Positions 24,186 to 28,960 of a stretch of DNA of 64,000 nucleotides are shown here, piece by piece. The stretch comes from Shigella phage JK23. A model generated the notes under the pieces. The model was not told where the DNA came from and made no database searches. It was given only the letters and a program-made list of their open reading frames with translations. How positions within the stretch are numbered: position 1 is the first letter of the stretch; the number at the start of each line of letters is the position of its first letter. Position numbers and translations under genes: made by a program. The DNA is taken from sequence record MK962752; one strand, given 5' to 3'.

Positions 24186-24189
24186 CAAT

Positions 24190-24207
24190 GGGGACCGAAA
24201 GGTCCCC
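24190..24207. terminator. bidirectional hairpin between convergent gene 54 and the alt block
   Basis: GGGGACC-GAAA-GGTCCCC followed by T-rich tract. Confidence 0.7.
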
Positions 24208-24213
24208 ATATTT

Positions 24214-24504
24214 TTATTTACGGAATGAAATGAAAGCAGAAACTGAAGCAACTAAACTGTCTTCAATATAAACTTCAATTTTTACCGGAGCTTCTGACTC
24301 AAATTTACCTGTTACTACACCTTGGAAAATGCTTTCAGTCTGTTCTGGTTTTGAAAAATTTTCAGAAGGAAAAATTCCGAACTTTTTATCTGTTCCAAAA
24401 ATTTTAATAAATTCATCGTAAACTGCTTCATTAAAAGCATTATCAGCAGGAATAACGCCTTCAACGACGAGCTCTTGGCCTAAAAAGCGTAAAGAAGATT
24501 TCAT
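24214..24504 (-). CDS. hypothetical protein downstream of alt (alt.-N family)
   Basis: 96-aa ORF with ATG start, GAGGA RBS and early promoter upstream. Confidence 0.6.
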   Translation of the reverse strand: MKSSLRFLGQELVVEGVIPADNAFNEAVYDEFIKIFGTDKKFGIFPSENFSKPEQTESIFQGVVTGKFESEAPVKIEVYIEDSLVASVSAFISFRK

Positions 24505-24511
24505 TTTGTGT

Positions 24512-24565
24512 TCCTCATGTTATGTCAGTAAGACTACTATAACACAACACGAGGGACTTGTAAAC
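24512..24565 (-). repeat. 54-bp exact repeat, copy 1 (early promoter plus leader)
   Basis: Identical to 40482-40535. Confidence 0.9.
24536..24565 (-). promoter_or_regulatory. early promoter (-35 GTTTAC, -10 TATAGT)
   Basis: On - strand GTTTAC, 18-bp spacer, TATAGT, then GAGGA RBS; inside 54-bp repeat. Confidence 0.55.
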
Positions 24566-26622
24566 TACATTTTGAACTTTTTAGACATTCCGTTGATGTT
24601 AACCAAAGAAGCTAATATTTGAGAAACTTCGTTTTCCTCTTCTTTTGATTCTTCTACAAGGAATTGATTAAATCCAGCCATTGGACGAACTTCACCAGTT
24701 TCCATTAAATGGTCGCCATCATATACTGATTCTTCTAATTGGTCAGAAGGAGGAACGATTGTACCTTCGATTAGATACTTGTTATAAGCAGTTTCTTTCA
24801 TAAAGTACGTACTTACTTTATTAATCTTTAGTAAAATTCCGCGCGGTAGAATAACTTCAGCTTCTGATGGAAATCCTGATAAATGACCCGGAACGATAAC
24901 TTTGATTCGCTCAGCTCCTTTAATTACCATACCCACGCTAGTTTCAGCATCTTCATTAGCATATGTAGAATGACTACCCATATGCATCAAATCTTCTGCA
25001 TCAACAGAACCTTCTCCTTCGCCAGAAAATACTGCACCGGAATCATCTAGAGCCATATAGTTTTTACCATGCTCACCGAAGATATTTGGTTTAAGCGATG
25101 TCGATACGAAGTTCTTGAAATAGAACATTTTGTTTTCAATGTTATGACGCAAAGTTTTAAAGGTAACTTCTTGTCCACGATAAAGCGTAGTTCCTGGAGG
25201 AAGAACTGAACCTTTAGCGAATGCAGAATCCAACGTCTCAATGTGCTTAATAGCTCGTTCCATATATTCTTCACGGGTAGAATCTGGTTTACCCAAAAGG
25301 AACGAGTTCATTTCAACATATGAATCTGCACAATAATCTTCAATTACATCAGACTCAGCCTGAGTCAGTCCTTTTGGAGTTACTTCAGTGCTTGCGTATT
25401 CATATGCCTGAGCAGCAGATTCATTAATCAATTTATAAATGCCATTCATGACAAATTGAATAATAGCTGTCTTTTCATCTGGCGTAGCTTTAGAACCTTT
25501 AACCAAATCATTGATAATTTTCTTAATAACATCAAAGCTATTAGAAATATTAATATCAGCAAGATCGCTTAAAATTTTATCAGTTTTATAATCAAAGAAT
25601 TCTTTATTCTTTAAATATTCTTGAGAACCTTGATATGTTATATCGCTCTGCAACTTGATAGATGGATCACGTAAACGTGCATGGGCCAATGCAATATGAT
25701 TTCGGAAGTTTTCTAGTTCATAATCGCTAGATTTAAAACGAGAAGCACTTCTCATACCACCGATAGCTCCTTTGCCGAAGTTTGAACCAATCTGGATAAC
25801 GCCAGAGTTCATCGGACCTTCTGCTTTATATACCGGAACTTTAGATTCAAACTCTTGATATTTCTTGGCAGCGAAGCCATCACCCTGAAGTGAAGCATCG
25901 ACAGTAGAATATTGAGCTTGTGCTGCTAATCGACGACTAATTTTAGTTTTTTGAATAACAGCTTGATCCGTGCGCTTATCATTTTCTAAAGCAATAGAAG
26001 CAGCAACAGCGACAGCTTTAGGAACAGCATTACCTGTTTTAACATCTACATAAACATCACCGACCTTTGATTCAACTTTTGTGAATAACTCGGTTGAAAT
26101 AGGAGGTACACCTGGAATGTCTTCTAAATTGGCATTTTTACGGTAAACCATAATATATGCGTACTTTTTATCATAGTCCCAGATTTCCTTTAAAAGAACA
26201 TATCGACCTGCTCCTTTAGTACGTACTAAACGGTCAGCAATAACTTGCATTTGACGAGCTGCGCCATTTGTTTTACTTTTTAGTACGCGGAATAGACATG
26301 CGTCGATTTTATACTGTTTCATTGTTTGAAGAGCAGTATCAAAAACGGCATTAATGACACCAATTGGATTTCCACCCAAGTTTTTAAGCTTAACTAATGA
26401 TAGTTTCTCATTAACACCTATCATTACGATATGCATCATTTTATCGCCTGGTTTAACGTTTTTATTCGTATCACCACCAGAGGTGTATGTACAAAATCTA
26501 AATCCAGGAAGCACGCTTTCTTCGCCGGCTTGAATAGCAAAAATTTGTGGTATTTTATGCTTAGGATTTAAGTTAACAACCGGCGCCGAAGCGCCGTCAA
26601 ATAATTCTGTAATAAGTTCCAT
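24565..26622 (-). CDS. alt: Alt-like ADP-ribosyltransferase, paralogue 1
   Basis: 685-aa ORF; N-terminal MELITELFD (prohead-protease LxE site); C-terminal R-S-E ART motifs YRGQ / STSL / EAEVILPRG. Confidence 0.85.
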   Translation of the reverse strand: MELITELFDGASAPVVNLNPKHKIPQIFAIQAGEESVLPGFRFCTYTSGGDTNKNVKPGDKMMHIVMIGVNEKLSLVKLKNLGGNPIGVINAVFDTALQTMKQYKIDACLFRVLKSKTNGAARQMQVIADRLVRTKGAGRYVLLKEIWDYDKKYAYIMVYRKNANLEDIPGVPPISTELFTKVESKVGDVYVDVKTGNAVPKAVAVAASIALENDKRTDQAVIQKTKISRRLAAQAQYSTVDASLQGDGFAAKKYQEFESKVPVYKAEGPMNSGVIQIGSNFGKGAIGGMRSASRFKSSDYELENFRNHIALAHARLRDPSIKLQSDITYQGSQEYLKNKEFFDYKTDKILSDLADINISNSFDVIKKIINDLVKGSKATPDEKTAIIQFVMNGIYKLINESAAQAYEYASTEVTPKGLTQAESDVIEDYCADSYVEMNSFLLGKPDSTREEYMERAIKHIETLDSAFAKGSVLPPGTTLYRGQEVTFKTLRHNIENKMFYFKNFVSTSLKPNIFGEHGKNYMALDDSGAVFSGEGEGSVDAEDLMHMGSHSTYANEDAETSVGMVIKGAERIKVIVPGHLSGFPSEAEVILPRGILLKINKVSTYFMKETAYNKYLIEGTIVPPSDQLEESVYDGDHLMETGEVRPMAGFNQFLVEESKEEENEVSQILASLVNINGMSKKFKM

Positions 26623-26625
26623 GAT

Positions 26626-28722
26626 TTATCCTTGAACGAACTTGTAAGGCATGTTTGTAATATCTATGCAAGACGCAATAATTCCAAGAGATGATTCTAC
26701 TTTCTGTTTAACATTTGATGAAACAAATGATGCAAAGTCAACTCTGTCTTCTACTTCAATATCACCTGTCATTGCAACTACTTCGCCGGTTTCCATTAGA
26801 TGGTCACCGTCATAAATTACCGATTCGGTGAGTTCTTCTGTGGTCATAACTTCAGCTTGAATAAGTTTTGTATTATTAGATGTTGTTCCGTCATTATTAG
26901 AAGCATCAGTTATTTTATTAACTTTAACCATCAATCCGCGCGGTAGAATAACTTCAGCTTCTGTTGCTATTCCGAGACTTCCTGGATATACAACATTAAC
27001 TTTATGAGCTCCATCAATTGCCCATCCTATTTGAACTTTAACGTATTCAGGATTTTCTTTATACGCTCTTATTTCGTTTGGATTAATAGTTATTCCTTCT
27101 TCATTTTTATCAACTGTTAATTCATTGCGAGCTTCTGGTTCTAAAAGACCAATACCAGCATGTGTAATTCCAAAACGTCCAAAAATGATAGGAGTTAAAG
27201 AAGTAGATACAAAATTTCTGAAATAGAACACTTTATTTTTAACTAGTGCTTCGTATATAGGAGCAGTCATACTTTGAGCACGATAAACTGTAATGCCTTC
27301 TGGTATACGGTCACCATTTTCAAAAGCTGAATCTAAATTATTTATAGCAGATTCAATTTCTTTTTCACTCATTATATCATATCGTTCTGGATTGTAACGA
27401 CCTAAAAGAAGATTATTGATGTCTGTATATCCTGAACCACAATACTCTCTAATGCCGCGCTTTTGTGATGGAGTATATTTAGAACCATCACGGGCAATAG
27501 TAATATCAATCATTGGACCTGCACCAATTCCGGAAAAGCTATAAATCATTCGTTTGAGGAATTTAGTTTTTGCTGCATTCCAGGCATTTTTAGTTATTTC
27601 TCCCCAGACTTCATCTGGCTGCCCTTTACGAGTTTTATTATGTTTATCAAGCCAATTATCTTTATATTCTTCAAATAATTGATTAACAGCTGCTGCGTAT
27701 TTCTCTAAACATTTTATTGAAGTAGTTGGTTCATTTTTAATCGCATTAAGAATTACATCTTTAATTTTTTCTGAAACTTCACCGACTTGACTCATTGGAA
27801 AGAATTTATAATCATAGTGAAGTTCATCTGCCGTTCCTTCAGCAATAATTTTTGCTGCCTTAGTTTTAGAAGCTAATGAATTAATTCCAAGCTTCATTTC
27901 TTCTGCTTCGGGAATTAAAGGTGCAGTAGCAGGTTTATTGAAATTAGCTGCGGTAGATTCATACTTCTGGAATAATTCACTTTCAAATCTAGAAGATTCC
28001 AATGACTGACTTTGTGCAATTGCTCTACGGGAAATTTTAACTTTAACGATTACGGCTTGGTCAGAACGTTTATCGTTTTCTTGTGCAATAGATGCAGCAA
28101 TTGCCTCATTTTTGGTTACTTGAGCTCCAGTATCTTTATTAATATAAACATCACCGACCTTCGATTCAACTTTAGTAAAGAGCTCGGTACTAATTTCCGG
28201 AACTCCTGGAATGTCTTCTAGTGATACATTTTTGCGATGTATAAGAATATATGCATACTTTTTATCATAATCCCAGAGTTCCTTAAGAAGGACGTATCTG
28301 CCACCTGAACGACTACGGATAAGTCTATCAGCAATAACTTGAATTTGTCGAGCTTGGCCAGCAGTTTTAGACTTAAGAATACGAAGCATACAAGCATCAA
28401 TTTTATACTGACGCATTGTTTGCATTGCAACAGTAAAAACTGAATTGATATAATTAATTGGGCTTGGACCAAGACCTTTTAATTTAGCAATTGAACCTTT
28501 AGCAGTTAATGTAAAAGGAACAATATGCATCATTTTATCGCCCATTTTTAAATCACGATTAGTATCACCTCCAGATGTATAGGTACATAAACGAAAGCCT
28601 GGTTGTTCAATTGCATCATCAACATGAACTGAAAAAATTTGTGGTATTTTCTTCTTTGGATTTAAGTTTGTAATCGGAAGAGTAGTATCTTCGTCAAATA
28701 ATTCTGTAATGAGTTCCATCAT
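26626..28722 (-). CDS. alt: Alt-like ADP-ribosyltransferase, paralogue 2
   Basis: 698-aa ORF; same N-terminal MELITELFD and C-terminal YRAQ / STSL / EAEVILPRG motifs, divergent central region; late promoter upstream. Confidence 0.85.
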   Translation of the reverse strand: MMELITELFDEDTTLPITNLNPKKKIPQIFSVHVDDAIEQPGFRLCTYTSGGDTNRDLKMGDKMMHIVPFTLTAKGSIAKLKGLGPSPINYINSVFTVAMQTMRQYKIDACMLRILKSKTAGQARQIQVIADRLIRSRSGGRYVLLKELWDYDKKYAYILIHRKNVSLEDIPGVPEISTELFTKVESKVGDVYINKDTGAQVTKNEAIAASIAQENDKRSDQAVIVKVKISRRAIAQSQSLESSRFESELFQKYESTAANFNKPATAPLIPEAEEMKLGINSLASKTKAAKIIAEGTADELHYDYKFFPMSQVGEVSEKIKDVILNAIKNEPTTSIKCLEKYAAAVNQLFEEYKDNWLDKHNKTRKGQPDEVWGEITKNAWNAAKTKFLKRMIYSFSGIGAGPMIDITIARDGSKYTPSQKRGIREYCGSGYTDINNLLLGRYNPERYDIMSEKEIESAINNLDSAFENGDRIPEGITVYRAQSMTAPIYEALVKNKVFYFRNFVSTSLTPIIFGRFGITHAGIGLLEPEARNELTVDKNEEGITINPNEIRAYKENPEYVKVQIGWAIDGAHKVNVVYPGSLGIATEAEVILPRGLMVKVNKITDASNNDGTTSNNTKLIQAEVMTTEELTESVIYDGDHLMETGEVVAMTGDIEVEDRVDFASFVSSNVKQKVESSLGIIASCIDITNMPYKFVQG

Positions 28723-28742: not shown

Positions 28743-28750
28743 TATTTATA
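28743..28750 (-). promoter_or_regulatory. late promoter TATAAATA on - strand (alt paralogue 2)
   Basis: Plus-strand TATTTATA between a hairpin and the alt RBS (GAGAGG). Confidence 0.6.
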
Positions 28751-28755
28751 AAATT

Positions 28756-28773
28756 AAAGGCCCGAAGGCCTTT
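28756..28773 (-). terminator. hairpin upstream of alt late promoter
   Basis: AAAGGCC-CGAA-GGCCTTT. Confidence 0.55.
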
Positions 28774-28960
28774 AATAATCTATTGGTAAGAGAGTACGAT
28801 ATATTTCAAACTTTGGACCTTTTTCATAGGCATCAAAAGTTTCTGTGAATTTATTATAAGCATATGCATCTATAAATTCAATCATGATTTGTGATACAGA
28901 AGTAGAAACATCTCCACCTTCTTTTTGAGCCACGACAATTGTTTCTAAGTAAGCTTTCAT
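28772..28960 (-). CDS. hypothetical small protein
   Basis: 62-aa ORF, ATG start overlapping 3' end of gene 30. Confidence 0.45.
   Translation of the reverse strand: MKAYLETIVVAQKEGGDVSTSVSQIMIEFIDAYAYNKFTETFDAYEKGPKFEIYRTLLPIDY

Follow-up and report, generated by a model that had tools for sequence, protein, structure and literature searches.

We analysed a 64,000-nucleotide stretch of the genome of Shigella phage JK23 (sequence record MK962752; hereafter the window), which carries two tandem genes, alt and Alt2, encoding diverged Alt-type ADP-ribosyltransferases (ARTs). We consider it likely that the window preserves the ancestral two-gene alt locus of the T-even phages, with both products being arginine-specific mono-ADP-ribosyltransferases that would serve as complementary injected effectors. 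The gene pair itself is not novel; hundreds of genomes already carry annotations and names for it. The RB32 annotation of 2006 calls the second gene alt.-2, 'similar to alt', both genes of T2 and T6 are labelled 'Alt-like RNA polymerase ADP-ribosyltransferase' in RefSeq, and the BASEL records name them 'ADP-ribosyltransferase Alt' and 'Alt2'. Searching the literature on the second copy, only a comparative-genomics remark from 2006 came up (PMC1524935).

The window is a segment of a Tequatrovirus (T4-like) genome; over the 5.2 kb spanning the gene pair, identity is 98.6% to Shigella phage CM8 and 97-98% to RB32, T2, and T6. This region matched 539 phage records, 394 of which cover at least 80% of it in one piece. 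On the minus strand, the genes are ordered gene 30 (ligase), alt.1, alt, Alt2, and alt.-3, and genes 54, 48, and 29 follow on the plus strand. The pair is thus flanked by gene 30/alt.1 on one side and alt.-3/gene 54 on the other, and it lies on the late strand and has a late promoter. Two tandem open reading frames had been proposed in a preliminary description of this DNA, at 24565-26622 (minus strand, 685 amino acids (aa)) and 26626-28722 (minus strand, 698 aa), and both are present exactly as claimed. The alt frame starts with two adjacent ATGs (ATGATG); the T4, RB32, T2, and T6 annotations take the second (28719), and the BASEL records the first. The alt protein is most likely 697 aa long, beginning MELITELFDEDT, because the second ATG matches the start used in T4, RB32, T2, and T6 and is better spaced from the GAGAGGA ribosome-binding site. 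The Alt N-terminal propeptide is given as seven residues in one review and as six in the primary mass-spectrometry paper, which may reflect the same two-ATG ambiguity.

26626..28719, minus strand: alt, the first copy (T2/T6-type allele), 697 aa from the T4-equivalent ATG
28720-28722, minus strand: extra in-frame ATG of alt, upstream of the T4-equivalent start, giving 698 aa
24565..26622, minus strand: Alt2, the second copy (alt.-2 in RB32, Alt2 in the BASEL phages), 685 aa

Both proteins belong to a known family over their whole length. PHROG 802, 'Alt-like RNA polymerase ADP-ribosyltransferase', spans them end to end (E-values 1e-256 and 8e-273; phrog_802 covers residues 1-685 of Alt2 and 1-696 of alt), and Pfam PF03496 (ADPrib_exo_Tox) matches both (E-values 6e-20 and 1.5e-37). 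Both are also colinear with T4 Alt throughout, with an N-module, a helical centre, an ART domain, and an acidic tail, although this does not extend to sequence conservation in the centre. Performing AlphaFold2 modelling, we obtained a mean predicted local distance difference test score of 73 for one protein and 75.6 for the other, and each model comprised an alpha/beta N-domain (~1-215), an all-helical centre (~230-470), an ART domain, and a low-confidence tail. The ART domain of the R-S-E clade was recognisable in both proteins by sequence and fold, and the fold is of the C3/VIP2/Vis type. A sequence search of the Protein Data Bank with Alt2 returned nothing at an E-value of 0.01 or below; the placement came from the fold comparison only.

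The preliminary description had judged both copies catalytically competent from their R-S-E motifs. These motifs (YRGQ/YRAQ, FVSTSL, and (S/T)EAEVILPRG) are all there, and an alignment that includes T4 Alt, ModA, and ModB bears this judgement out, since no active-site residue is lost in either copy. The Arg, Ser, and E-x-E residues of the window proteins align with their equivalents in those three enzymes. Across an alignment of 15 family members, five residues never vary: the catalytic Arg, the two Ser of S-T-S, and the two Glu of E-x-E. HMMER further aligned the Arg and E-x-E motifs of alt to the YRR and EYE motifs of CdtA. The following positions are all invariant columns of the family alignment.

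27280..27282, minus strand: alt catalytic Arg480 (YRAQ)
27199-27207, minus strand: alt S505-T506-S507
26953-26961, minus strand: alt E587-A-E589
25177..25179, minus strand: Alt2 catalytic Arg482 (YRGQ)
25096-25104, minus strand: Alt2 S507-T508-S509
24856-24864, minus strand: Alt2 E587-A-E589

In the C3/iota-type ART clade, E-x-E instead of Q-x-E is the established signature of arginine-directed transfer. The S-T-S and E-x-E motifs are ~77-79 residues apart in both window proteins (24856-25104 and 26953-27207, minus strand), and this spacing is roughly 40 residues shorter in C3-type toxins. The acidic segment in between is highly variable among paralogues and alleles, and in the Alt2 of Dhakavirus JS98 it is longer by another insertion of ~25 residues. 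The loops that select substrates in other ARTs lie in the same region. The bacterial R-S-E ADP-ribosylating toxins (Vis, C3, VIP2, iota Ia, CDTa, and Certhrax) are among the closest known systems. T4 ModA and ModB fall in the same clade, with 17-20% identity over the ART core, but they are early, unpackaged proteins of ~200 aa that lack the N-module, the helical centre, and the propeptides.

Comparing the two window proteins with each other, we find 41% identity (BLASTP, E-value 3e-162), far beyond chance. The identity is ~67-75% over the N-terminal ~238 aa, ~35% in the ART domains, and ~40% in the tails. The common N-terminus MELITELFD noted previously was confirmed, the first nine residues being identical in Alt and Alt2. 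The centres (~aa 239-415), which had been described as unrelated, indeed gave no BLAST match, and hhalign of two small profiles returned a probability of 1% with an E-value of 0.056. Diverged homology of the centres was considered and rejected on these results. Both AlphaFold2 models place a similar run of ~10 helices there, a likeness that was not counted for homology because both models used one mixed alignment. The modules are located as follows.

28006-28719, minus strand: alt N-module, aa 1-238
27490-28005, minus strand: alt helical centre, aa 239-410
26830-27489, minus strand: alt ART domain, aa 411-630
26629-26823, minus strand: alt predicted C-terminal propeptide, aa 633-697
25909-26622, minus strand: Alt2 N-module, aa 1-238
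25378-25908, minus strand: Alt2 helical centre, aa 239-415
24748-25377, minus strand: Alt2 ART domain, aa 416-625
24568-24729, minus strand: Alt2 predicted C-terminal propeptide, aa 632-685

T4 Alt (682 aa), a head-packaged NAD+:arginine ADP-ribosyltransferase, occupies the same locus and has the same architecture, the same R, S-T-S, and E-x-E residues, and the same ITE-6 and L-x-E motifs. The window alt is nevertheless a different allele. It is 70% identical to T4 Alt overall, being near-identical over aa 1-246 and ~95% identical in the tail, whereas the ART domain reaches ~63% and the centre only ~30-35%. The T2-type alt centre is found at no less than 90% identity in 318 records, against 30% in T4 itself. 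Alt2 shows 41-42% overall identity to T4 Alt, and its centre is unrelated. Judged by these alignments, neither window allele is the biochemically studied T4 Alt. Both differ from it in the presumed specificity regions. The transfer of T4 Alt biochemistry (alpha Arg265, MazF, Mokosh evasion) to either window protein cannot be assumed.

The presence of the protein in the mature head and its injection with the DNA are established for T4 Alt only. In T4, Alt resides in the prohead core and head at ~40 copies and is cut by gp21 (PMC9958956), a protease that cuts after Glu in L/I-x-E (PMC9026906). By mass spectrometry, T4 Alt loses 6 residues from its N-terminus (at ITE-6) and 63 from its C-terminus (at LTE-619) to yield a 68.2 kDa protein (PMC5694885); applying these two sites to the T4 sequence, we reproduced the 68.2 kDa. 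An N-terminal prohead-protease site of the LxE type had been proposed for both window proteins. The site is present in both, but it reads I-T-E (ITE-6), which lies inside the published L/I-x-E consensus, and not LxE. Both copies also keep a second, C-terminal gp21 motif that had been missed.

28702..28710, minus strand: alt N-terminal gp21 motif I4-T5-E6, same sequence as in T4 Alt, predicted cut after E6
26824..26832, minus strand: alt C-terminal gp21 motif L630-T631-E632, followed by SVIYDGDHLMETGE, aligning with T4 LTE-619
26605..26613, minus strand: Alt2 N-terminal gp21 motif I4-T5-E6, putative cleavage site
24730..24738, minus strand: Alt2 C-terminal gp21 motif L629-E630-E631, followed by SVYDGDHLMETGE, putative cleavage site

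Cleavage at these sites is predicted to release a 65-aa C-propeptide and leave a 70.0-kDa mature protein from alt, and to release a 54-aa C-propeptide and leave a 69.1-kDa mature protein from Alt2. Directly after the C-terminal motif, both window proteins continue with S-V-(I)-YDGDHLMETGE. The Glu of the C-terminal site is invariant in all 15 aligned family members, and so are Y-D-G-D, E, G-E, and the terminal K-F. Among 87 long representatives, 50 have an [LIMV]-x-E placed 1-4 residues ahead of the (Y/F/W)DG(D/E/N) motif. The retention of both propeptides in Alt2 is the best available argument for its packaging and trimming, and we infer that Alt2 is packaged and processed by gp21.

The evolutionary record speaks for two genes kept by selection. 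We calculated the ratio of nonsynonymous to synonymous substitution rates (dN/dS) for the window against RB32, T2, T6, JE01, and phiC600P9 (six genomes in all). Alt2 is 685 aa long in all six and shows dN/dS of 0.03-0.06 at dS 0.09-0.27, making it at least as constrained as alt (dN/dS 0.03-0.08). Both genes are under strong purifying selection. A tblastn search placed Alt2 in 401 phage records at no less than 90% identity, with the next matches below 60%, and the private Alt2 centre is distributed likewise. The gene is intact in ~400 records, including T2, T6, and RB32; whether T2 and T6 share the tandem arrangement had been left open previously, and they do. The Alt2 proteins of T2, T6, RB32, Bas35, and Bas37-39 are 97-99.6% identical to the window Alt2, with few substitutions and the same position and 685-aa length. 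In phiC600P9 and Bas35, a T4-type alt stands alongside an intact Alt2. One further record, PV654520.1 (142 kb), is labelled 'Pseudomonas phage vB_PSGBLB0006' with P. aeruginosa as host, and its Alt2 is 99% identical to that of E. coli Tequatrovirus; the host label or the purity of this record seems doubtful.

Dhakavirus JS98 has two alt genes at the same place. Alt2 is 48% identical to and colinear with the second JS98 gene, centre included, and only 32% identical to the first. A tandem pair with a positional Alt2 orthologue in JS98 means that the duplication predates the split of Tequatrovirus and Dhakavirus, and that the single-copy state of T4 is derived. By this gene comparison, the alt/Alt2 pair is evidently older than that split. 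Duplications of alt have also been described in 44RR and RB49 (PMC1524935).

The preliminary description gave T4 a single full-length alt, which is right; besides the 682-aa alt, it retains Alt2 remnants as the ORFs alt.-1 and alt.-2, and its GenBank note already traces these to an old duplication of the initial part of alt. Using blastn against the window and frame translations, we find that the remnant starts at the same ATG as Alt2 and keeps 98% nucleotide identity over the first ~350 nt (~116 codons). Near codon 57, an A-run has lost one nucleotide, which shifts the frame and splits it into alt.-1 and alt.-2, and the remnant then rejoins the last Alt2 codons across a 1,699-bp deletion bounded by a 9-bp direct repeat. 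The window Alt2 is whole and has neither lesion.

26275..26283, minus strand: upstream copy of the 9-bp direct repeat CTAAAAAGT, T4 deletion boundary
24576-24584, minus strand: downstream copy of the 9-bp direct repeat CTAAAAAGT, T4 deletion boundary

The two PHROG fragment families 23015 and 15247 match Alt2 residues 1-56 and 62-117. The T4 junction is contiguous in 91 of 498 matching records; the others split it, as an intact gene does. From these junctions it is evident that T4 lost the second gene by deletion. A laboratory artefact was considered and rejected, the same junction being present in independent isolates such as ACG-C40, G8, HMD-9, and FL23.

We also looked at how the modules travel. 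Among 1.84 billion representative proteins, 112 clusters matched, many of them as two stretches (the N-module and the ART/tail) without the centre. Four relatives of Alt2 (P0003-P0006) are natural chimeras; all are 97-100% Alt2-type from the centre through the ART domain to the tail, but their N-modules range from Alt2-type to 98% Alt-type. In P0004 the change of type falls near residue 112 (...YKIDAC|LFRV...), and the N-module of P0006 is the 98% Alt-type one. The P0004 and P0006 chimeras indicate that the N-module has been exchanged between the paralogues by recombination in some phages. Recent gene conversion in the JK23 genome was examined and rejected, with third-position identity between the two N-modules at 0.25-0.74 and the longest identical run at 20 nt. 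The similarity of the N-module proteins therefore reflects constraint and not recent conversion, because the synonymous sites are near-saturated. Three metagenomic proteins (P0200, P0217, and P0226; 485, 541, and 1142 aa) carry the Alt N-module at phrog_802 N-terminal positions (E-values 1e-29 to 1e-36) behind N-termini like ...LFEIFD, and they lack the ART domain, S-T-S, E-x-E, and the YDGD tail. Their composition suggests that the N-module may be a separable delivery module fused to other, unannotated cargos.

The expression signals fit late synthesis of both proteins. A T4-type late promoter precedes alt, in agreement with the known late expression of alt in T4 (PMC9697503). The alt stop codon (26626-26628) is followed by a 3-nt gap to the Alt2 ATG, and the terminator scan found no minus-strand terminator-like site between the two genes. 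Because of this short gap, the Shine-Dalgarno sequence inside alt, and the missing terminator, alt and Alt2 probably share one late transcript. The early-type promoter that serves alt.-3 marks the end of this late unit.

28743..28750, minus strand: T4-type late promoter TATAAATA, 21 nt upstream of the alt ATG
28756-28773, minus strand: hairpin AAAGGCCTTCGGGCCTTT, overlapping the alt.1 stop codon ahead of the late promoter, read by eye and not listed by the terminator scan
26629..26633, minus strand: Shine-Dalgarno sequence AAGGA for Alt2, within the last alt codons
24536..24564, minus strand: early-type promoter (G)TTTACA-17-TATAGT with TG, serving alt.-3 and beginning right after the Alt2 stop codon

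The alt coding region itself holds another exact TATAAATA (27339-27346, minus strand), 717 nt upstream of the Alt2 start, and it is the only other copy on the strand. It could be an independent late promoter for Alt2, or a chance match in AT-rich DNA.

Functional data exist for a close relative. The Alt and Alt2 proteins of Bas37 (KarlGJung) are 98.3% and 99.0% identical to those of the window, and a 2025 preprint reports transposon data for this phage (10.1101/2025.11.20.689424). The part of the data set considered here comprises the essentiality sheet and three of the six host comparisons, with the Alt2 rows of the CFE303, CFE336, and Mokosh sheets lying outside it. On K-12, Alt2 (bas37_0032) is classed 'Intermediate', with 116 of 164 TA sites hit at a mean count of 44.5, and Alt (bas37_0033) is classed 'Non-essential', with 164 of 179 TA sites hit at a mean of 203.6. 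On the clinical isolate CFE331, Alt insertions were depleted (log2 fold change -1.56, adjusted p ~0), while Alt2 insertions were not (+0.12). Within these sheets, the differing phenotypes of Alt and Alt2 argue against redundancy. The same preprint reports that T4 Alt helps to evade Mokosh type I and rescues plating, and that Bas37 Alt, which is the same allele as the window alt, cannot substitute for it. Its main text makes no mention of bas37_0032 and does not contain the word 'paralog'.

Taking these observations together, we propose that alt and Alt2 would be transcribed late as one unit from the TATAAATA promoter upstream of alt, and that both precursors would enter the prohead core through the shared N-module and the N- and C-terminal propeptides. 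The protease gp21 would trim both at ITE-6 and at the L-x-E near residue 631/632 to mature proteins of ~69-70 kDa. Mature Alt and Alt2 would then be injected with the DNA and, within seconds of infection, would use host NAD+ to ADP-ribosylate arginines on proteins of the host. Different substrate sets may arise from the helical centres, which are unrelated, and from the long, variable stretch inserted between S-T-S and E-x-E, so that the two enzymes would complement each other and not be redundant. Different targets, which the preliminary description had suggested, are consistent with the unrelated centres, the ~35% ART identity, and, in the sheets considered, the differing Bas37 phenotypes.

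Several points weigh against this proposal. The AlphaFold2 alignments were shallow (16 sequences), leaving the centres and tails at modest or low confidence. Published virion mass spectrometry and proteomics yielded no detection of Alt2 in our search, and the 'proteomics' of PMC10698182 is in silico; the case for Alt2 packaging and gp21 processing is thus made by motif conservation only. The L/I-x-E motif is short and occurs many times in both proteins, and it is solely its conserved position that argues for use. There is no separate late promoter directly before Alt2. The 'Intermediate' class of Alt2 in the K-12 sheet could reflect toxic truncated products or polar effects. Finally, our searches point to no substrate on record for Alt2 or for T2-type Alt.

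These points leave room for other explanations. The two enzymes might be redundant, modifying the same host targets (chiefly RNA polymerase alpha Arg265) with the second copy serving as dosage or back-up. Their architecture, catalytic motifs, and propeptide motifs are the same, alpha Arg265 is a target that T4 Alt already shares with ModA (PMC2988021), and T4 and 90 other records manage without the second copy. We hold redundancy to be improbable all the same, as it must contend with centres that have no detectable similarity, ART domains that are only ~35% identical, and strong purifying selection on both copies since before the Tequatrovirus/Dhakavirus split. The transposon phenotypes of the Bas37 pair, as far as the sheets considered go, also differ, and by the same preprint one Alt allele could not even replace another against Mokosh type I. 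The missing proteomic evidence for Alt2 in virions would suit an active ART that stays unpackaged and acts late in the producing cell, for instance on host or phage proteins during assembly. Such an assembly-phase role could also explain the lower fitness that disruption of Alt2 brings on K-12 in the essentiality sheet. Yet an unpackaged protein would hardly be expected to keep nine first residues identical to those of Alt together with ITE-6, an N-module conserved at 67-75% while its synonymous sites are near-saturated (a mark of constraint), and the L-x-E / YDGD..E.GE C-propeptide. The natural chimeras with an Alt-type N-module on an Alt2 body suggest, moreover, that the module is interchangeable. 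We thus regard an unpackaged Alt2 as rather unlikely.

A decaying or catalytically dead duplicate deserves almost no credence. T4 does carry frameshifted fragments only, and the RB32 annotation does speak of an 'apparent insertion in alt.-2'. The T4 state, however, is a derived deletion between 9-bp repeats, and Alt2 is full-length in six of six genomes with dN/dS of 0.03-0.06, has all catalytic residues intact, and occurs in ~400 records at 90% identity or above. A pseudogene is refuted, since we see no frameshift, truncation, or relaxed selection.

Beyond the proposal of two complementary injected effectors, we put forward a more tentative one, which we regard as somewhat less probable than its negation. 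Alt2 might be an injected effector with a substrate set unlike that of any studied phage ART, set by its private centre and the loop between S-T-S and E-x-E, and the N-module and the two propeptides might form a head-delivery chassis for swapped cargos. The target of Alt2 would then matter even in K-12, because Bas37 Alt2 insertions are ~4.6-fold under-represented in the essentiality sheet and Alt insertions are neutral. The chassis idea draws on the natural Alt/Alt2 N-module chimeras and on the metagenomic N-module proteins without an ART domain.

Some neighbouring features deserve a record. Downstream of Alt2, alt.-3 (24214-24504, minus strand) encodes a 96-aa protein (Pfam DUF5498, phrog_1739) with its own early-type promoter and a dN/dS near 0. 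C-terminal extensions of T4 Alt.-3 allow escape from CmdTAC by blocking CmdA degradation (bioRxiv 10.1101/2024.02.24.581662). In the Bas37 data, the alt.-3 orthologue bas37_0031 showed depletion in the first of the host comparisons, which the order of the sheets makes K-12 versus CFT073 (log2 fold change -2.70, adjusted p 0.02; 10.1101/2025.11.20.689424). A symmetric strong hairpin, ATGGGGACC-GAAA-GGTCCCCAT, at 24188-24209 lies between gene 54 and alt.-3, which converge; it has a terminator score on both strands and probably stops transcription in either direction. Upstream of alt, alt.1 (28772-28960, minus strand) encodes 62 aa and matches Pfam PF24647, 'Phage blade protein' (E-value 7.5e-29). 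The T6 RefSeq record calls it 'siderophore-interacting protein', apparently a label propagated by mistake.

Alt is the textbook example of a phage enzyme that is delivered with the DNA and reprograms the host before phage gene expression, and this knowledge comes almost entirely from T4. T4 is atypical here; two diverged enzymes are encoded, if not also injected, by about four-fifths of its sequenced relatives, many of which, like the window, also carry a non-T4 allele of the first copy. T4 lost Alt2 through a deletion that is confined to a minority lineage. If the more tentative proposal is true, decades of work on T4 would for that reason have overlooked one of a pair of effectors injected by typical T-even phages. 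Recent genetics, in the data considered here, indicates that the host defences overcome depend on the Alt allele (Mokosh type I) and that Alt and Alt2 cannot stand in for each other. The JK23 sequence offers a good example of a gene pair that is known but has received little study, and it poses a modest question that lies beyond the reach of T4 work. The substrates of Alt2 and of T2-type Alt would help to explain differences in host range and defence evasion among therapeutic T-even phages, and a conserved delivery module joined to a swappable specificity region would be relevant to engineering the packaging of proteins into T4-type heads.

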